Shown here: positions 42,545 through 60,316 of the stretch, one piece after another | Numbering within the stretch: position 1 is the stretch's first letter | Layout of the letters: every line of letters starts with the position of its first letter | NCBI GenBank assembly: GCA_030265395.1 | Contig: JARFYF010000104.1 | Location: 45,887,429 to 45,951,428, forward strand | Length of the DNA stretch: 64,000 nt | Reading direction: 5' to 3' | Origin: Rhina ancylostomus | Taxonomy: Eukaryota | Position numbers and translations under genes: made by a program | The notes under the pieces: generated by a model | What the model saw: only the letters and a program-made list of their open reading frames with translations | The model's database searches: none | What the model was told of the DNA's origin: nothing

Positions 42545-44572
42545 CTTGGTATTGGTATTGGTTTATTGTTGTCACTTGTATCAAGCTACAGTGAAAAACT
42601 TGACTTGCATACCATTCATACGGAGCAATTCATTACATAGTGCCGTGGGGTCTATGTGGTTGGACCAGGAGAGTCATTTGGTGATGTTCACTCCCATGAA
42701 CTTGAAGCTCTCAACCCTCTCAACCTCAGCACCATTGATGTAGATAGGTGCTTGTAGACCGCCCCCTTTCCTGAAGTCAATGACCAGCTCTTTTGTTTTG
42801 TTGACATTAAGGGAAAGGTTGTTGTTATGACACCATGTCACCAAGCTCTCTATCTCCTTCCTGTACTCCGACACATCATTATTTGAGCCGTGGCCCACTA
42901 CGTTGGTATCTTCTGCAAACTTGTAGATGGAGTTGGAGTAGAATCTGGCCACACAGTCATGAGTGTATAGGGAGTAGAGTAGAGGGCTGAGGATGCAGCC
43001 TTGTGGGGCACCAGTGTTGAGAATAATTGTGCCTATCCTTACTAATTGTGGTCTGTTGGGCAGAAAGTCAAGGATCCAGTTACAGAGGAAGGTGTTGAGT
43101 CCCAGGCCTAGGAGTTTGGAGATGAATTTCCTTGGAATGATGGTAATGAAGCTGAGCTGTAGTCAATAAATAATAGTCTACGTCAGAGCCTTTAATGTTC
43201 AGATGCTCCTGAGATGGATGTAGGGCTAGGGAGATGGAACCCACTGTAGACCTGTTACGGCAGTAGGAGAATTGCAGTGGGTCAAGGTTGTCTGGGAGGC
43301 TGGAGTTAATGTGTGCCATGACCAGCTCTTCGAAGTACTTCATGATGGCAGTCATTAAGGCACGTTACCTTATTTTTCTTAGGTACTGGGATGATAGTGG
43401 TCTTCTTAAAGTAGGTGGGACCTTAGATTGAAGCAGGGAGAGGTTAAAAACATCTGTGTACCCCCACCAGCTGATCTGCACAGGATATAACAACAAGGCC
43501 AGGGACACCATCTGGGACAGATGCTTTCCCCAGGTTCACTCTCCGAAAGACTGAACTGACATCCGCAACAATGACCATGGGTTCAGGTGCATTGGAGGCT
43601 GTTGGGATGGGTGGTGACATTCCAATCCCCTTCTGTTGAAAATGTGTATAGAATGCATTAAGCTCATCAGGAAGGGATGTGCTGTTGCCGGTGATGCTGC
43701 CTGACTTTGTTTTGTAGCCCATTATAACATGTAAGCCCTACCACAATTGATGGCTGGTCTGCGACTTGACTTTGGACTAGTATTGTCTCTTGGCATCTCT
43801 GATAGTTTAACAGAGGTCGTATCTTGATTTCTTGTATAGTTCAGAGTTACCTGATTTGAACAGCGCAGTCCTGGACTTCAGTAAGGAGTGCACCTCTCGA
43901 ATTATCCATGGTTTCCAGTTTGGGAACACCTGGATTGACCTCTTTGGTACATATTCATCGAGGTTGGCTGCTTAGTCTTTGAACATGGACCAGTCTAATG
44001 ATTCAAAGCAGTTGCGTAGAAGCTTATCAATTTACTTAGACCAGCACCATATGAATTTCTGTACTGGATCCTCACATTTCAGTTTCTGTTTGTATGCAGA
44101 GAGAAGAAGCACAGACTGGTGGTCTGATTTACCAAAGTGTGGGCTGGGGCTGGCTTGGTAGGCACCTTTGATGGTTGTGCAGCAATAGTCAAGGGTGTTT
44201 GGAGCCCTGGTGAGCCAGGAGATGTACCGGTAGTATTTTGGTAACACATTCTTGAAGTTAGCCTGGTTGAAGTCACTGGCAATGATGAAGAGGGCGTTGG
44301 AGTATCCAATTTCAAGGCTGTTGATAATGGAGTGTAGTTCATTGAGTGCAGTCATCATATCCACCTAGGGTGGGAGGTAGACTGCTGTCAAGACAGCTAA
44401 AGTGAACTCCCGTGGCAGGTAGTATAGGCAGCACTTCACTATTAGATATATCAAGTCAGGTGAGCAGGAACTCACCAGGACCAGGACATCCGAACACCAT
44501 GAGGAGTTGATTAGGAAGCAGACCCCTCTGCCACTTGCTTTATCCGAGGACGCAGTATTGTGTATCCAATGC
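42545..44572 (-). mobile_element. Rex1/Babar LINE (endonuclease + RT), disrupted
   Basis: GRGVCFLINSSWC; ASDFNQAN..TLDYC..FGKSDH (APE); MKYFEELV..LDPLQFSY; YKFAEDT; [18 protein letters not shown]; (CAATAC)n tail. Confidence 0.92.
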
Positions 44573-47379: not shown

Positions 47380-50300
47380 TAAAACAAAGCTAGGGTCATT
47401 TGGAGTTGCCATTTTGAGAGGGGCTGATGGTTGTCTAAGTGTGGGCTTTGGTGAGCAGCACTAAGATATGATGATTGTAGATTCTTATATTTTTCCTCAG
47501 CGCTTTTTTTTTATCATGGCTGGTGAGCTCAGACCTTTGTCATGCTCCTTCTGTGTAATTTGGGAGCTCAGAGTGGCTGCCAGTGTCCAGATGACTGTGT
47601 GCAGGAAGTGTGTCCAACTGCAGCTCCTGACAGACTATATGATGCAACTAAGAGCTGCACATGGATTCACTTTGGAGCATCTGTGATGCTGAGAATGTTG
47701 TGGATAACATATTTAGTGGTTGGTCAATCTGCAGTTTAATGGCCTAAGGTATAGGTAACCAGCAAGTGGAGCTATAGCAGAAAGGTAGTGCAGGATTCCC
47801 CTGTGGTTATTCCTTCCAAAGCAGATATACTGCTTTGGATATTGTTGGGGGAGATGGCTCATCAGGAGAAGGCAGCAATAGCCAGGATTATGGCCTTGTG
47901 AGTGCCTCTGCTGTACAGGAGGGCAGGAAAAAGAGTGGCAGAGCTACAGTGGTAGGCAATTCCATGGTGAGGGGCATAGACAGGAGCTTCTGTGGCTGGA
48001 AGTGGCATTCCTTGGTGCAAGGGTCAGGGATATCTCGGAGCAATTGCTGGGCATTCTAAAAGGGAGGGTGACCAGCCAGCTGTCCTGGTGCGTGTAGGTA
48101 CCAATGATACAGAAAAAAAGTGGAATGTGGTCCTACAAGCTGAATTTAGGGAGCTAGGAGATAAATTAAAATGTAGCACCTCAAAGGTAATAATCTCAGG
48201 ATTACTACCTGTGCCATGTACTAGTCAGAGTAGGAATAGCAGCATAATTGGGATAAATATGTGGCTGGGGCAGTGGTGCAGGAGGGAGGGTTTCAAACTC
48301 CTGGGGTACTGGAACCTGTACTTGGGGAGGTGGGACCAGTACAAACCAAATGGTCTACACCTGGGCAAGACTGGTATCAACGTCCTAGGGGCGATTGTTT
48401 GCTTGTATTGGGGAGGGTTTAAACTAATATGGCAGGGGATGGGAATCCATACAGAAAGACAGAGGGAAGCAAAGCAGAGACCAAAATGAAAGTTAGAAAA
48501 GAGAAGTAAGATTAGAGTACAGAAAAGTCAAATGCAAAGGACATAAAGATTACTGAGATTCTAAAAGGGCAATGAATGTAAAGGTACTTCATCTAAATGT
48601 CTGTACTATTTGAAGCAAGACCAGTAAACTTGTGGCACAATCTGTACAAAGTGGTATGATTTGGTGGCCGTTGCTGGAAAGTGGTTGCAGGGTGGAGATG
48701 AGTGGGAATTAAATATCCAAGGGTATTGGGTAATGTGGAAGGATAGGCAGGTAAGGGAGGTGGGGTAGTGCTCTTATCTGAGGATGAGATCAGGGTGATA
48801 GTGAGATGTTACAAGATCTAACGAGCAGAATACTAAATCCATCTGGTTAGAGGTTAGGAATAGTAAAGGGAAAAGGTCACTAGCGTGAGTTTTCTATCGG
48901 CCACCAAATAACATTACAGTGTCACAGGCAATAAATCAAGAAATATCGGATCCATGTAAGGCAATTGTCATGGAGGGCTTTAACTTCCACATAGATTGGG
49001 CGAATCAAGTTGGTTGAGGCTGTCTTGAGCAGGACTTTGCAGAATATGTGTGACAGCTTTCTTAAACAACATGTTACTGAACCTACAAGAAAAACTGTTG
49101 TCTTAGATCTGGTCCTGTACAATGAGACAGATAAAATTAACAATCTTGTAATTAGGGATGCTCTTGGAAAGAATAATCACAGTATGAGAAATTCTATCAT
49201 ACAAATGGAGGGTATAATAGTTTGATCTAAAACCAATGTATTATGCCTAAACAAGGAAGGCTACAATGAGGGAGGAGTTGGCTAGTGTAGACTGAGAACA
49301 TAGGCTACGTGGGGGGATGGTTGAGGGACAGTGGAAGATTTTCAAAGATTTTTTCAGTGCTCAACAGAAGTCTATTCCAGTTAAAAGAAAGGACCGTAAG
49401 GGTGGGGAGAGCCAACCTTGGATAAGGAAGAAAACAAAGGAAAGCATCAAACTGAAAGCTCATGCATTCAAAGTTGCCAAGAGTAGCGGGAAACTGAAAG
49501 ATTGAGTAAACTTTAAAAAGTAACAAAGAACCACCAAGCGAGCAATGAGGAAAAGGAAGATAAATTATGAAAGTAAACTAGCACAAATATTAAAAAAGAT
49601 ATTATAGAAGCTTTTACTTTTATAAAGCAGAAAAGAGTGGCTAAAGTGAATGTTGGTCCCTTGGAAAAATGAGAAAGGGGAATTAATATTGGGTAATGTG
49701 GAAATGGCTGAGGCTTTGATTGAATACATTTCATTGGTCTTCATGGTGGAGGACACATCTAACATGCCAAAGAGATGTTGTGGATGCAATGGTGGGTGAA
49801 AACCTTGATACAATCTGTATCACTAAAGAGGTAGTGCTGAGCAAACTAGTGGGCCTAAAGGTAGACAAATCCCTTGGTCCTGATGGGATGCATCCCAGGG
49901 TACTGAAAGAAATGATGGAAGTTATAATAGAGGCATTTGTAATAATTTGCCAAAATTCTCTGGACTCTGGGCAGGTCCTGGCAGATTGGAAGATAGTGAA
50001 TGTCACGCTACTTTAACAAGAAGGCTGTAGGCAAATAGCAGGTAACTCTAGGCCAGTTAGCTTAATGCCTGTTGTCGGGAAAATGCTTGAAGCTATCATT
50101 AAGGAAGAAATAATGAGACATCTGGATAGAAATAGTTCCTTCAGACAAACAGAGAGCGTGGATTCAGGAAGGGCAGGTCCTGTTTGACAAACTGGTGTTC
50201 TTTGAGGATATATTGAGTGCAGTGGATAAAGGGAACAGGTGGATGTTTATTTGGATTTCCAGAAAGTGGGCAATAAAGTGCTGCATAAAAGATGTATCCA

Positions 50301-52537: not shown

Positions 52538-52900
52538 AAGACTGACACTCCACTGCAGTACCAAGAGGGTGCTACACAGTCAGAAATGCTATCTTTCAGA
52601 AATGACATTAAATCCGGGCTCTGTTTTCCCTCTCAGGGAGACTTAAAACATCCCATGAAGGAGAACTGGAGGGCTTGTGTCTGGTGGCCCGGCCAGTAAT
52701 TATCCAACAATCAATGCTTTTAAAGAAAAAAGGTAACAATCACGATGCTATTTCTGGGATCTTGCTGTGCAAAAGTTGTCTGCCATGTTTCCTGCAACAC
52801 AACAGTGACTACACGTGTGAAATATTCTTCATTAACTGGGAAGTGCTTTGGGACATCTTAAAGGAATGTGTAAGATACTATCAAAATGCAAACTTTTCTT
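52538..52900 (+). mobile_element. Deu-SINE (SacSINE1-like)
   Basis: CTGACACTCCACTGCAGTAC..CCCTCTCAGG..GGGATCTTGCTGTGC..AAATGCAA tail. Confidence 0.7.
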
Positions 52901-53919
52901 TTTCCCCCATAGCTTGCTTCAACAGGCTGAAAAAGAAAACATCAGTGCGTGAATGAAGTGAATACAGAGAGGCTGTATTCAGACTGAACTCAATGGAACC
53001 AAACAAATTTAAAAAAGCATATTTTAGTGATCTAGATTTACTTTTGGTTGTATCAATTAATAGGCCTCTTGTCAGCCTTTGATATTTAAAATTAAGCAGA
53101 TCTTTCACGATGATTTTTTCATTATGTTTCAGAATTAGATTTAGATACTCAGCTTAACTTATGCCTGGTGTTTGAGTAAACTAATAATCCGATGAAAGTC
53201 ATGTCATTTGGTGCAAAACTATTCAGACAGTGATAATGCAAGTAATTTGCAGATAATGCATTTTTATTTCTCTCAATATGACCACAAAGGCCAAGGAAAT
53301 GAATTAACATTTCATTAGGTTCCAAACAGGATTTAAATTGTTCACCTCGTAACTTGCAAGAAGGTAATATGATATTTATATTAGAAACTTGCAACCTTAC
53401 TGTTGGTATTGAGGAATACACACTTTTCTACTGATATCATTTTCAACGATTCCAAGAATGGCAAAGGCCACCTCCAAGCTTTTATATGTGTAATTATTTC
53501 CAAGTGAGAGGTCTCTGCTGGCATTTGCACTTCCTTGGGTGCTTTGAGAGGATTTTCAGAGGGCTGGAATACCAAAACATTCATCTTCAGTTGTATAAGC
53601 TAAGCATATGATATAGGTAAGTATCCTTGAATTCTGCTTCTGAAATTTGGTTCCACGAGGTCAATGGAAACTAATTTTAGCAGCAGAGTTAGAGATACAT
53701 ATGGCACAGTCCTACACATTAAGCACAGTTGCTGATTTTGCTGTTATTCTAACTATTCCAGGGTGTTAGACAAAGACCATTCAGTTCTTAGGACTTTTGT
53801 TTAGTTTGTGGCTAATGTATACCTATATTGATTACATTTGCTGTCTTGACCAATTTTGTTTCCAGAGGCAAAGTTCAAACTTGCCATGTTCATCTTTGAG
53901 CCCTTTGCAGCATCAATGG

Positions 53920-54011
53920 ACCTTGTATTCCATTGAGGAATGAACCTAGTGTTCCATTGAGAAATAGACCTTGCATTCCATTGAAGAATGAACCTTGTAT
54001 TGCATTGAGGA
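53920..54011. repeat. 24-bp tandem repeat, about 4 copies
   Basis: ACCTTGTATTCCATTGAGGAATGA / ACCTAGTGTTCCATTGAGAAATAG / ACCTTGCATTCCATTGAAGAATGA / ACCTTGTATTGCATTGAGGA. Confidence 0.9.
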
Positions 54012-54936
54012 CTGCTGCAAAAGTTTGGCCTCTGTTGGCAGCAGTGATATTCACTGATGTCAAGATGGACATGTCAACTGTTACAATGAAAAAAACAATG
54101 ACACCATCCTTTCAAAAAATTTCCTGAAAAAGATGCTAGATCTTTTATGATATTTAAGAAACAAGTTGTGGTTTTTAACTAAGAGCATCTCTGACACTCC
54201 CAGGTAGTTCCTAAATTGGAAATTGCTGGTTTAAGATGATTGCAAGTAGTTACAAATAAAATACTGACATCAACTCTTAACATCTTGGTGAAGGCATCAC
54301 CTTTTAAACTCTCCTGAAATTTTCAGAATTTAGAAAACTTATATTTAAGCAAAGTTACAACTGACTAGACAGAATTTCCAAGTATCAACATTATTTAAAT
54401 GTATGTCCCTAAAAATGTATTGAACTCTATTCCTTTTAATGGCTCATGGATCAGTTGGGACCTTTTGGCATTTTGGTGGTTTTCAGCCACACTCATCCCT
54501 TTGCACCAGGAGCATTGCTTCCGAGGGAATACATTTCCTTTTTCTTTAAAAGCCCTGCAATCTCCAAGAGGATTGAATCACATAAAACAAGAATTGATAC
54601 TCACTAGATGCAAGGGTTAAGAAAAGTTCATCCGTCTCAATGATTGACATGTTTTATGGGTGAGAACACCCAGGGCTGAGTCTTACCTGATAGATGGACA
54701 ATTCTGAATAGAAGCACTCTGGCCCAATTTGCCTATAATTTTCCTGTAATTCACTTTGAATGTAACTAATATTAACCCCTCCGTCCAACTGTTTATGGCA
54801 GCAGAGAAGAAATCTACATTACCTTGAACAGCAAATGTCTGATCTAGATAAGTTCTTCGTTGACCTACACTGAAAGTGAGTGTAACAGTATCAGTGTATA
54901 ACAATGACTTCATGGTGGCTATTTGTTAAGACAAGA

Positions 54937-55220
54937 CATCTTTATTAGTCCATCGAAACACACAGTGAAATGCATCTTTTGTGTAGAGTGTTCTGGGGGC
55001 AGCCCACAAGTGTCGCCACACTGCCGGTGCCAACATAGCATGCCCACAACTTCCTAACCCATATATCTTGGGAATGTGGGAGAAAACTGGATCACCTGGA
55101 GGAAACCTATGCAGTCACAGGGAGAAAGTACAAGCTCCTTACAGACAGTGGCTGGAATTGAATCTGGGTCGCTGGCACTGCATTAGAGTTATGCTAACTG
55201 CTACACTACTGTGCCTGCCC
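54937..55220 (-). mobile_element. V-SINE with Rex1-like 3' tail
   Basis: Collinear with 21154-21441. Confidence 0.85.
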
Positions 55221-56090
55221 TTAGGAATAGTAAAGGGAAAAAATAACTGGTGGGAGTTGTCTATAGGCCACCAAATAATAACATTACCGTGGCACAGGCA
55301 ATAAACCAAGAAATAGATGTAGCAGAGGAATCGGAGAGTCTACAGATAGATATAGAGTGGTTAAGTGAGTGGGCAAGGGTCTGGCAGATGGAATACGATT
55401 TTGGTAAATGCGAGGTCATCCATTTCGGAAGGAAATATAGAAGACCAGATTATTATTTAAATGGTGAAAGATTGCAGCACGCTGTTGTGCAGAGGGACTC
55501 GGGAGTGCTTGTCCATGAATTGCAAAAGTTTATTTCAACTGTACAGGGTACTGGTGAGGCTGCACCTGGAGCACTGCATGCAGTTCTAGTCTCCTTACTT
55601 GAGGAAAGATATACAGGCTTTGGAGGCAGTGCAGAGGAGGTTCACCAAGTTGATTCTGGAGATGAGGGGGTTAGCCTATGAGGAGAGTTTGAGTTGCCTG
55701 GGACTCGATGGACTTCAGAAGAATGAGAGGAAATCCTGTAGAAACATATAAAATTATGAAAGGATAGATAAGATAGAGGCAGGGAAATTGTTTCCATTGG
55801 TGAGACTAGAACTAGGGGACATAGTCTAGATTTGGGACAGATGAGGAGAATGCTTTTCCCAGAGTAGTGAATCCAAGGTATTCTCTGCCAAGGGAAGCAG
55901 TAGAGGCTACTTCATTAAATGTATTTAAAACATGGTTAGATTTTTGCATAGTAGGGGAATTGAGGATTATGGGGAAAAGGCAGGTCGGTGGTGCTGAGTC
56001 CATGGTCAGATCAACCATGATCTTATTGAATGGTGGAACAGGGTCAATGGGCCATATGGTCTACTCATGCTCCTTTGTGTTCTTGTGTAA
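55221..56090 (+). mobile_element. Internally deleted CR1 LINE
   Basis: GVVYRPPNNN (endonuclease) is joined directly to LQIDIEWLSEWARVWQMEY (late RT), followed by the CR1 3' end. Confidence 0.88.
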
Positions 56091-56319
56091 GATCTCGGGT
56101 GAATTTGTATGCATAAGTGTGCATCTCATTCAGACATGATATGACAGGCTTTTCCAAGAAGTACAACTTTAAAATTTACAATCATTTTAATTACAAATGT
56201 GTGACAGTTGTCACTGAAGAAGTAATGGGTAATAAAATATTATAATTCACTGTAGGTAATGTATTTCCAGTGAATTAATGATTTGATAATCTAATTACAA
56301 AATAAGTGAAATAACACAT

Positions 56320-57290
56320 TTAAAATTTGAAGGTGCAAAATTCAGAACAGTTCCCCAAACCTCAGTGATGTCTCCATAATTGTACAATTTCTCTCAGCAG
56401 CTCTTAAATTAATTCCCAGAGTGTGCAGTTGGAATGGAGTACTGTACTCGTTTTCCTGTTTGTTCACATATGGCTTGTAAACCTTTACAAGTGAAGGAAT
56501 ATCCTTTGTCTGCATGTAAACAGGCAGGACTTCCAGCATGCAGGAATATTGAGATCTGGGGTGTTGTGACGGGAGCGGTCTCTCTACATGTAGTGAGAAC
56601 TAACCACATATATCATGTACAAAGATCAACTATCACAAGAATATACTTATTTGGTTTCTGATTAAGGTGGGCTGCCTTGAAGTGCTGGAAATGGGCCTAC
56701 ATAATCAACTTGCCACACCTGCATCGGTGCCTTTGGCTTTATTTGTCTCTTTGGAGGTGGTCTTGTAACTTCTTTATTATAGGCCAGACATTCTTTACAA
56801 TTTGCAATTTACAATCAATCAACATACAAGGCCACCAGTATAAATGGCTAATTTTGCGCGAGTGGCTCGTCTGCCACCATGATCGTGTCCAAATCTTTGG
56901 GCTTCTCAAATCAGATCTTCCTGCTTATTAGCAGGAGGTGTTTGCTGCTTGTCTTTTCTAGGGCACCTTGCCTTCACCATCAGCCTTGTATGCTACTAAA
57001 CCCAATTCCAAAGGATTTCCAACACAGTAAAATACAAGAGTACTCTTGGAACATCATCCTGTTTTTTTTTAATTTGTTGCTGACTTACTACCATAACCTT
57101 GGCCTCCCTTACAGTAGCAATGTCCATCCCAGCAGCTTGCTTTGCTTGTTCATTGGCTAATTTATTACTATAGCTGTGCAAGTGACCTGCAGTATGTCCC
57201 AGGATGTGAAACACTTGTACTAACGGCTGAGTCAATAATAATTTGGTCTTCCACATGGACAAGTGTGAAAGAGGTTTCCCTCCATGCTCA
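56320..57290 (-). pseudogene. pol: Foamy-virus-like pol: RNase H C-terminus + integrase
   Basis: GKPLSHLSMWK..HILGH..HSYSNKLANEQA (RNase H); PPANKQEDLI*EA..HDHGGRRATRAKLA-LYWWPCMLID..CKECL..N (Zn-binding domain); WQVDYVGPFP; YILVIVDLCT*YMWL; LHADKGYSFT..YSIP. Confidence 0.85.
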
Positions 57291-57484
57291 ATTTGAGGAG
57301 CATCAAATGTATTCTGTATTTCTGTTATACTATCGATGTGTTCATAATATTGACCAGCATTTGCCTGAGCAGTTACTACAACCAGGATGTCAGCTATTTA
57401 TAGTATTAGGTGGTGTGCCATAGCACTTATTGAGCATGCTCTACATTGGACAACTGCTAATTAATATTAACTATCAATACTCGT

Positions 57485-57502
57485 GCTCCACATTGGGCGA
57501 CA
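57485..57502 (-). promoter_or_regulatory. Primer binding site, tRNA-Lys1,2 type
   Basis: TGTCGCCCAATGTGGAGC versus canonical TGGCGCCCAACGTGGGGC (15/18), 2 nt after the LTR-terminal CA. Confidence 0.8.
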
Positions 57503-57504
57503 TC

Positions 57505-58277
57505 TGTGATGTTGAGTGTAACCATTCTAGAGCCCTAAACTTGAGCTAAGAACTCGAGTCTTGTTAAAGATGGCTCAGTACCCTCACTTTAGGGAGAATA
57601 TATTGCATCAGCCTATTGTACAAAGACTAATTATTTAACAACTTTAGTCTCTTTTCTGAAGGGGTTCAGCTGTCAATAATCACTATTTCAGGTGGTGGGC
57701 CCCCCACCCTCCCAAACAAGGAGGAGATACTTCCAGCTAACAAAGCAAATTAAAGCCCATTATTTTATTTTAAATGGACCACATTTATTTTGAGGAGTAA
57801 TTAATAACAACGTAATTCTACAAAGTATTTCCAAACACAAGTAAAATTCTTACAAACTAGAGAAACATACCAATGAGTTGCAGACAAATGTGTCGTTCGT
57901 CACAGAAAGAAGAGGTCCTCCTCGGGTTGAGGCTCATAAGTGAACTCCATCGNNNNNNNNNNNNNATCTCTAACTCTTCTCCACCCTTATTGCCTTCCAA
58001 TGTTTATATTTTTTCACAGTTATCTAGTGATGACCTCATCTGCATGTGATGTTTTCACAACTGGATTGATCGGGTCAGATGGCAGGAGGGTTGGGTTAAC
58101 TCTGTTACGTCAACAATGGCTTCCTGAGCCTGGACAGTGTTGTTTCTCAAGAGGATGGGTAAATAGTACTTGTTAAAGATTAACAGTAAACATCCTGAGT
58201 CTTAGACAGTTTCTTCTACTGTGCTAAAAAGCTGAGTTTAGCAAAAAGCTTTCTGAACTTGGTGAATATCAATCACA
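57505..58277 (-). mobile_element. 5' LTR of the foamy-like provirus (distal boundary uncertain)
   Basis: Ends ..ATCACA next to the PBS; TATAAA 58008-58003; AATAAA 57789-57784; possible TGTGAT start at 58277; R-U5 homologue at 59956-60316. Confidence 0.65.
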
Positions 58278-58619
58278 AGGCATACAGCACTGGCTTTCTG
58301 ATTGCTCTGATGTATTAACCCCAGTGACATACAAAACTTATGGACTATGCAGAATATCCTAGATAAATTCCTATTCAGGCTTAGAAATTTCTGTTGTATT
58401 GTGCACAATTCATACATGCAATCTAATATGTTTTCTCTCTTAAATATATTAAAGATGATTTACTATATAGATCCACAATGTTCCTTCTGTGTCCTTGTGA
58501 TTTTTTTTTCCCCTCCCCTGTGACCAGGTATAGCACAGGTCACTAATGCAACAACACAACATCATGGAGCATGCAGCGAAGAGGGAATTTGGCACCTCTT
58601 TAAGCAAACTGAATGAACA

Positions 58620-59640: not shown

Positions 59641-59955
59641 CAATATCCAAGAACATCACAGGCTCAAATGGTTAAATGATAATTAAATATAAAATCTGTA
59701 GATGCTGAAAATCTAAAATAAAAATGGAAAATACTGGTGCTGGGGATTATTCTGGGGTTATGAAATTGTGGATAGCAGGTGTTAAAATGAGACTGTAGAA
59801 CCAATCTTCAGGAAATAAAACCTATTCACAATTTTAACCTTAAATGATGTTTTAGGGGCATTGAAACCAATCATAGAAAAAAAATGACTGGGGTATTACA
59901 GAAAGAAGACCTTGAATTCATTCCTCAGCTGTTAGTTTTTGCAATGGACAACTTG

Positions 59956-60316
59956 TTTGTCTGCAACTTGTTGGTATGACTTTTCAGCTTGTAAGAATTG
60001 TACTTATTTTGGAAATCCTTTGTAAGTTGCAAGTTGTTGTTAAGAATTACTTATCAGAATTAAACGCATCTCACTTAAAATAGAACTGTTTAAATTGCTT
60101 CATTAGTTGGAAGCATCTTCTCCTTGGTGGAAGGAGGGACCCACTGTTTGAAAGTGATTATTGACAGTTGGACCTTTCCACAGAGAGTAAAGTAGTGAAG
60201 TAAACTAGTCCTTGAAATGTAGGTTGATACAGTATAATTTCCCTATAGAGAGCATACTTGTAGATGGAACTTAATCTTAAGTGTAGAGCTCTTGGACAGA
60301 ACATAGGTTTCCCACA
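59956..60316 (+). mobile_element. Second (inverted) copy of the foamy-like LTR R-U5
   Basis: Collinear with the reverse complement of 57888-57505; ends CCCACA; no PBS follows. Confidence 0.75.

Follow-up and report, generated by a model that had tools for sequence, protein, structure and literature searches.

Content of the locus

We analysed a stretch of 64,000 nucleotides from Rhina ancylostomus (GenBank assembly GCA_030265395.1, contig JARFYF010000104.1, positions 45,887,429 to 45,951,428 of the forward strand), hereafter the window, in which an original prediction made from the sequence alone had placed a decayed provirus resembling foamy viruses. What the locus contains is the 5' third of a foamy-type endogenous retrovirus (ERV) copy that is dead, gutted and internally deleted and that likely has no present function (Table 1). 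The original prediction had named a long terminal repeat (LTR), a primer-binding site, the end of RNase H and integrase on the minus strand; all four are borne out by the ends of the LTR, the match of the primer site, the matches in the PDB and a frameshift-aware comparison with foamy Pol. That gag, protease and reverse transcriptase (RT) are deleted, with just 46 gag codons standing ahead of the RNase H end, had gone unnoticed.

Table 1. Positions of the element and of neighbouring features in the window.
Feature	Position	Strand	Remarks
5' LTR	57505..58277	-	773 bp, 13 N at 57,953-57,965; ends TGTGAT...ATCACA
Primer-binding site, tRNA-Lys type	57485..57502	-	two bases past the LTR
gag, first 46 codons	57283..57421	-	one in-frame stop; the same peptide starts gag in undeleted sister copies
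Deletion junction dA	57282..57283	-	~3.7 kb lost, spanning gag, protease, RT and the bulk of RNase H
RNase H C-terminal end	57125..57282	-	foamy RNase H gives the top PDB matches; alignable to foamy Pol
Integrase, N-terminal part and first two thirds of core	56424..57100	-	frameshifted; remaining core lost
3' break, provirus/host DNA join	56423..56424	-	no env, no 3' LTR beyond
Single-copy host flank, not element	52900..54930	.	tandem repeat of four 24-bp units at 53,915-54,011
High-copy repeats, not element	54927..56062	.	repeated in many sister loci, very deep in contigs
Separate partial LTR, other subfamily of the same family	59896..60303	+	1.6 kb off the element, opposite strand

Over its length, the window LTR is 72-73% identical to both LTRs of a sister copy (C119), and on its outer side the homology of the sisters all ends at 58,277-58,283. 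At the other end, the sisters diverge from the window at 56,424, inside the integrase core. The primer site agrees in 14 of 18 letters with that of two foamy genomes from IMG/VR (L068 and L069), and sisters reach up to 17 of 18; window and sisters alike appear to carry a site of the tRNA-Lys1,2 type. The RNase H and integrase motifs quoted in the original prediction are found in the window, spread over three frames. The best PDB match of the RNase H end is foamy RNase H, at a weak E of 0.06, and the integrase part matches foamy integrase at E 1e-5 versus 0.05 for HIV-1, and the Pfam domain rve at E 1.5e-5. In the frameshift-aware comparison, which had been proposed as a check, two foamy Pol proteins scored 193 and 156, far over the maxima of shuffled sequence (45 and 43, 25 shuffles each).

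The provirus had also been thought to reach 52,900 and to include env-like remnants, but it stops at 56,424 and 52,900-54,930 is host flank. This stretch gave no Pfam match in its three minus frames, no translated match to 23 sister copies, no noteworthy match in the PDB and none in the Atlas, and foamy Env found nothing there by tblastn or as a profile in which 16 of 18 rows were without the Env C-terminus. Its frameshift-aware scores against foamy Env (31-45) are like those of shuffled DNA (maxima 43-56), whereas the env of a sister scores 105 and 132. It is single-copy except for a repeat of 60-90 bp, and has 93-97% identity in organisms B, C and E, as has the other flank. The env-like impression arose because of the tandem repeat listed in Table 1, whose translation, an amphipathic stretch rich in G, F, N and Q, resembles by eye the end of foamy Env. 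A complete, if decayed, provirus that spans 58,277 to about 52,900 and includes env could call on this resemblance and on a single Env score at z 2.9, the same as the shuffled maximum. With a single-copy stretch devoid of matches, no 3' LTR, and the real env of the family picked up by identical tests, such a provirus is hardly credible, and env in 52,900-54,930 is ruled out.

Genes and phylogenetic position of the family

The cartilaginous host first suggested is supported by a globin comparison: one alpha-globin exon of the 2.2-Gb genome matches PDB chain 1cg5/1cg8 at 90.6 bits and the next single-domain chain at 58.6. As 1CG8 is the haemoglobin of a stingray (PMC6279032), this exon makes a ray the likely host. 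Searching the genome with the pol piece gave 67 matches from the 40 candidates scored out of 51, and searching with the LTR gave 621 candidates, of which 40 were scored. We retrieved 35 sister copies, and 17 further loci across the gag/protease border. All sisters are broken; combined, they provide gag, protease, RT, RNase H, integrase and env, then an accessory region of ~2 kb (in C59 and others) before the 3' LTR. The env gene lies directly 3' of integrase, with no extra genes between pol and env. A rearranged sister (G000:C104:46,765,000-46,781,000; L047, L048) has env and accessory pieces upstream of RNase H-integrase.

Sisters match the Env domain PF03408 at 44.9 and 33 bits (cut-off 27), a match not found in the window, and sister C67 contains the Gag central domain PF20672 (35.1 bits, cut-off 30) and matches a foamy Gag at E 5e-6. 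The integrase SH3 domain PF18103 is over its cut-off in a sister (28.4 bits), and an RT open reading frame from a sister matches foamy viruses at E 1e-29, Ty3 at 3e-11 and HIV at 8e-7. Both W10 and W13 of the Env leader are present in 7 of 15 copies; these tryptophans are essential in foamy viruses (PMC3185757; papers are cited here by PubMed Central number). The GGGTG motif sits on the border between polypurine tract and LTR in three of nine sisters, two bases upstream in three and is missing in three, and the family appears to possess this border. Bel1 and Bel2 of two foamy genomes gave no match in the sisters at E 0.01.

RT trees group the family with foamy viruses at 98/96, in a tree where two family rows crossed out-of-frame stretches, and at 99 with single-frame pieces; the family is sister to the foamy clade, not inside it. 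The integrase tree, likewise proposed as a check, includes two pieces from the window and also makes the family sister to foamy viruses (91), apart from Gypsy. These trees hold 12 or 8 foamy rows, with Pol names confirmed, and gamma, epsilon-like, beta/delta, one snakehead-like and Gypsy-like rows, with genus labels assigned from length and motifs; they are without fish, shark, foamy-like ERV (FLERV), ERV-L/S or lokiretrovirus rows. A Pol grouping with foamy viruses, a PF03408 Env and a foamy Gag central domain thus all appear to be present, the last two in sisters, and the foamy-like nature first suggested for the locus is upheld. With an RT that clusters with foamy viruses and with none of the other retroviruses compared, the family would count among the foamy-like ERVs (clade Tu). 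It would not belong to the ERV-L/ERV-S/snakehead group (clade Huo), given its PF03408 Env and an approximately unbiased (AU) test on short RT pieces that rejects its union with the snakehead-like virus, the one proxy for that group (p 0.040). Nor would it be a lokiretrovirus: the Env of that group is like paramyxovirus F (PF00523) and unlike retroviral Env (PMC7947760), and the family's Env aligns to foamy Env. The family appears to work as foamy viruses do where Gag, RT, integrase and Env are concerned.

Separately, a 10.3-kb Logan contig (P0001) encodes a Pol of 1,156 amino acids, with an RT 62-66% identical to those of named foamy viruses. In one tree it falls outside the mammalian foamy rows, and it is possibly an undescribed non-mammalian foamy virus.

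The junction of gag and protease, a region lost from the window copy, was followed in the sisters. In majority-filled columns, the Gag central domain is separated from the Gag C-terminal motif by 507 nt (7 copies), the latter from the protease motif by 300 (9 copies), and this in turn from RT by 570 (8 copies). Because all three distances are multiples of 3, gag, protease and RT lie in one frame; the other two frames have many shared stops. The border codon precedes the protease aspartate by 26 codons and comes ~29 codons downstream of a motif resembling the p3 cleavage site. It reads TAG in five of twelve copies (L207-L218), CAG in four, and TTG, TGG and AAC in one each, and neither TAG nor CAG can be derived from the other by neutral change (p ~0.005 each). 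A second slot of frequent stops, inside protease, has the pattern of CpG decay, and we take it to result from this.

In foamy viruses, Pol is made from a start codon of its own in a frame that differs from gag (PMC8278194), and three foamy genomes have such a Pol ATG. None of the twelve copies has an in-frame ATG between border codon and protease motif, and a separate Pol start or frame appears to be lacking in the family; because this mode of expression was tested and not found, we keep the family out of the Spumaretrovirinae. An in-frame TAG 27-40 codons before the protease aspartate occurs in four gamma, epsilon-like and snakehead-like genomes, and XtERV-S likewise has an in-frame stop at its gag-pol junction (PMC8278194); unlike all of these, the family has RT, integrase, Gag and Env of foamy type. 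No consistent readthrough structure was found 3' of the border codon in the 12 copies (z -2.0 to 0.9). Readthrough or fusion at the border codon seems the likeliest reading, and a fairly probable one. The codon could alternatively belong to a splice acceptor served by an upstream exon with an ATG, since TAG and CAG both fit YAG.

Shared deletions and the proposed copying of defective members

The 5' breakpoint of dA, the internal deletion of the window copy, is common to seven records at six or more loci (the window, C7b, C52a, C52c, C54b, C2377 and C112a; C54b and C2377, at 96.5% identity, are possibly a single locus). The 5' flanks of the eight copies tested are unrelated. In six records the breakpoint agrees within ~3 nt, and the junction has 2 nt of homology. 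A splice product was considered and rejected, since just one of 17 undeleted copies has GT next to the 5' breakpoint and AG is mostly absent 3'. Counted by records, the deletion classes are dA (7), dB (3) and the env deletions E1 (7), E2 (7), E3 (3) and E4 (3). Two dA sisters that were measured are 4.4-4.5 kb long. Three dA copies (C7b, C52a and C52c) also carry E1 and an accessory deletion, and because these two deletions are shared by other copies that keep gag-pol, the order is nested, the accessory region going before env, and env before gag-protease-RT. The junctions of dB and of the accessory deletion show microhomology; that of E1 combines GT..AG with 7 nt of homology and is ambiguous as a splice, and E3 and E4 show neither feature clearly. 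One locus (G000:C69:16,938,000-16,954,000; L199, L200) holds two E4 junctions at a distance of 4.4 kb, as a local duplication or a nested copy.

E2 consists of seven loci (on C54, C94 with two, C1, C52, C104 and C112; e.g. L029, L033, L043) in which one env intron is precisely gone. Its donor, AG|GTAA, is present in six undeleted copies and its acceptor, TTTTTATAG, in three of three. Five tested copies and one gapped copy form a clade (97/94), and to judge from these sites the env-less subfamily E2 arose by exact removal of the intron. This recalls the delta-tas proviruses of simian foamy viruses, in which one GT..AG (bet) intron is absent (PMC12945018); unlike them, E2 forms are fixed in the germ line and amplified, and the E2 intron takes out most of env. 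The window's own dA deletion, unlike E2 and delta-tas, is not a splice. E2 fixes the position of an ancient viral intron.

Seven multi-locus deletion classes all spare a block of ~1.5 kb, from the RNase H end to the integrase end, by means of which most copies had been found. Among copies found by their leader alone, ten large deletions begin in gag, and nine of them stop short of integrase (p 5e-6 with uniform ends, 0.15 with observed lengths resampled); the junctions of the two copies that lack integrase were each seen once. A packaging-signal constraint on 3' pol, which houses such a signal in foamy viruses, is a lead, not a result. What remains in the dA form is the LTR, the primer site, 139 nt of gag and 3' pol; minimal foamy vectors likewise keep 5' leader and 3' pol, with cis-acting sequence CAS-I followed by CAS-II (PMC5035957, PMC3185757). 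A search for a central copy of the polypurine tract found purine runs in integrase and no clear copy of the 3' tract, and Rfam and tRNA scans found nothing. No RNA data set was listed as containing the locus, a result that carries no information on its expression. Within the retained block, a near-palindrome of 45-50 bp at 56,987-57,039, in the N-terminal coding part of integrase, has a reverse-strand match in many sisters and is a candidate RNA hairpin.

We propose, with a probability of roughly 80%, that the window holds a dead, deleted copy of a foamy-type family, likely carried as a germ-cell passenger on the enzymes of env-less sisters. An infectious foamy-type virus would have entered the germ line of a ray ancestor, where env-less variants would have gone on copying within cells. 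Foamy capsids without Env cannot bud, yet can re-integrate in the producing cell (PMC3185757), so that an env-less copy with gag-pol could serve as an intracellular master. A further variant would have lost gag-protease-RT by template switch, keeping LTRs, primer site, gag start, 3' pol and polypurine tract, and this cis-only variant may have been copied in trans. The window copy would have inserted before the split of organisms A and E, then undergone neutral decay and later the loss of its 3' half.

Several observations weigh against this proposal. The DNA tree of 21 copies is star-like, with tips of 0.05-0.17, and in it the dA copies form no clade (3 changes in an unresolved star), because of which dA may have originated recurrently; of the 32 rows with matches, 11 were kept out of the tree on account of short cover or large inserts, and four of these are dA copies (C52c, C54b, C2377 and C112a). 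The 3' dA breakpoint of the window lies ~16 nt beyond that of C7b, C52a and C52c. A 4-bp target duplication was exact in one of four testable sisters, had one mismatch in another and was missing in two. Contigs of run X1 span the dA junction and the 3' break (contig 56,015-56,647) with no differences, in a run that is possibly the assembly's own sample. That the window copy had no env at insertion is deduced from its sisters alone. Two contigs, one of organism D and one of E, part from the window at 56,410 and 56,425; their unaligned ends of 132 and 120 letters, themselves not displayed, suggest that the 3' loss came after insertion. Finally, the AU test on short RT pieces gives p 0.056 for the family with Gypsy.

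The first of these points would be expected if dA occurred after insertion, or repeatedly at a fragile spot, and if the window copy had been a full virus that arrived by reinfection, with no trace of a non-autonomous life. Across the seven records the 3' breakpoints vary by up to ~25 nt, and several further gag-pol deletions are seen just once. Against this, 2 nt of homology would be the sole guide to a 5' breakpoint shared so closely by six records, three dA sisters have two more deletions in common, and the flanks are unrelated; we consider this history unlikely. The Gypsy value bears on another account, which makes the family a Gypsy, ERV-L/S-like or lokiretrovirus element whose likeness to foamy viruses is confined to pol. 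Its gag-pol junction is indeed of the ERV-S/snakehead/gamma type, the trees were built without ERV-L/S or lokiretrovirus rows, and lokiretroviral RNase H clusters with foamy RNase H (PMC7947760). Since both RT and integrase trees place the family with foamy viruses, and it has foamy-specific Gag and Env profiles over cut-off, the Env tryptophans and the Lys primer site, this account is very improbable; for Ty3/Gypsy itself, the free trees separate the two and membership appears excluded, the AU value notwithstanding.

Age, relatives and surroundings

A search for orthologues had been proposed for dating the locus. Organisms B, C and E each have contigs that run across the LTR/flank junction at 58,277 and reach 57-104 letters into the LTR. 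Since these three share the 5' junction with the window, from which their flanks have diverged (B 2.9%, C 2.6%, E 6.8%, over the listed contigs summed; the figure for D, from one contig, is 6.1%), the insertion is old. In the eight sisters with 300 or more sites, the LTR pairs differ by a Kimura two-parameter distance of 0.11-0.22, 1.5-3 times the distance between organisms A and E. At 0.5e-9 per site and year, an assumption in PMC10699275, the locus would be at least ~70 million years (Myr) old and the family 105-220 Myr; at 2.2e-10, an assumption in PMC4422223, 160 Myr and 240-500 Myr, both sets of ages depending on the assumed rates. The orthologous insertion is a potential calibration point.

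A 2023 paper by Wang, Chen and Cui (J Virol 97:e0181622) reportedly presents, according to its title, a cartilaginous-fish endogenous foamy virus (CFEFV) rooting to its vertebrate counterparts, and CFEFV is said to occur in sharks and rays. The position in that title is the one our trees give the family, a likeness by title only. The family is probably a member of this published lineage and hence probably not a new one, and the "new deep lineage" of the original prediction is doubtful. The CFEFV work and its supplements may already hold the family and its gag-pol junction. In the literature searched, a coverage outside which the CFEFV text falls, we found no readthrough-type gag-pol and no amplified non-autonomous forms in foamy-like ERVs.

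With mammalian foamy viruses and the coelacanth element CoeEFV, the Env of which also matches PF03408 (PMC3386198), the family shares RT, integrase, Gag central domain, a PF03408 Env with W10 and W13, the Lys primer site, the GGGTG border, env right after integrase and ~2 kb from env to LTR. Unlike them, it has gag and protease in one frame and no Pol start codon, and is amplified to hundreds of LTRs; Bel1 and Bel2 gave no match at the threshold used. With the fish foamy-like ERVs (CmiFLERV of the elephant shark, ERV-Spuma.0-Sca of a catshark and those of ray-finned fish) it shares a foamy-like pol in a fish host, and also the Lys primer site and the GGGTG motif (PMC5210030). PMC5512871 detected pol alone in C. 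milii and found fish Gag and Env not alignable to the mammalian proteins; unlike the fish elements, the family has Gag and Env alignable to those of mammalian foamy viruses, and its pol and env have no extra genes between them. PMC10699275 screened 12 chondrichthyans, three batoids among them, and groups the catshark ERV-Spuma.0-Sca with elements of ray-finned fish. The clade Tu labels visible in the tree of PMC6001957 include no skate or whale shark element; one skate label is retrievable.

Three traits of the family may be new: a one-frame gag-protease with its border codon, the E2 intron removal, and deletions that spare 3' pol. Taken alone, the window locus is a dead fragment and an ordinary copy. 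The family preserves, in fossil form, an early foamy-type virus whose Env and Gag can be aligned, and its deleted subfamilies are a natural map of the cis requirements of such a genome. More tentatively, the whole might be read as a basal ray virus that joined foamy Gag, RT, integrase and Env to an amber-readthrough gag-pol in the gamma/epsilon style and left env-less, spliced and non-autonomous forms in the germ line, 3' pol always being kept; from the sequences we regard this as conceivable, though we lean against it. If the single-frame junction holds, separate Pol expression, for which foamy viruses are known, came after foamy Gag and Env, which would order a long-open step in the evolution of retroviruses. 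On the tentative reading, the spliced message from which living foamy viruses make Pol separately would be a later acquisition, and the constant retention of 3' pol would date the two-part foamy packaging signal to the split of sharks and bony fish.

Next to the element lies another LTR of the family (59,896-60,303), which is 79-81% identical to the 3' LTRs of C52b and C54a and 72% to the window LTR. The high-copy repeats beyond the 3' break comprise a part we take to be like a short interspersed nuclear element (54,927-55,219) and one presumably like a long interspersed nuclear element (LINE; 55,220-56,062), going by their motifs. A scan for host genes, covering 100 of the 352 longest stop-to-stop frames of the window, returned two LINE-type matches and nothing else. 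An RT fragment (RVT_1, E 2e-13) lies at 42,677-43,162 on the minus strand and a GDSL-like fragment at 47,980-48,486 on the plus strand, both of which we take to be typical LINE remains.

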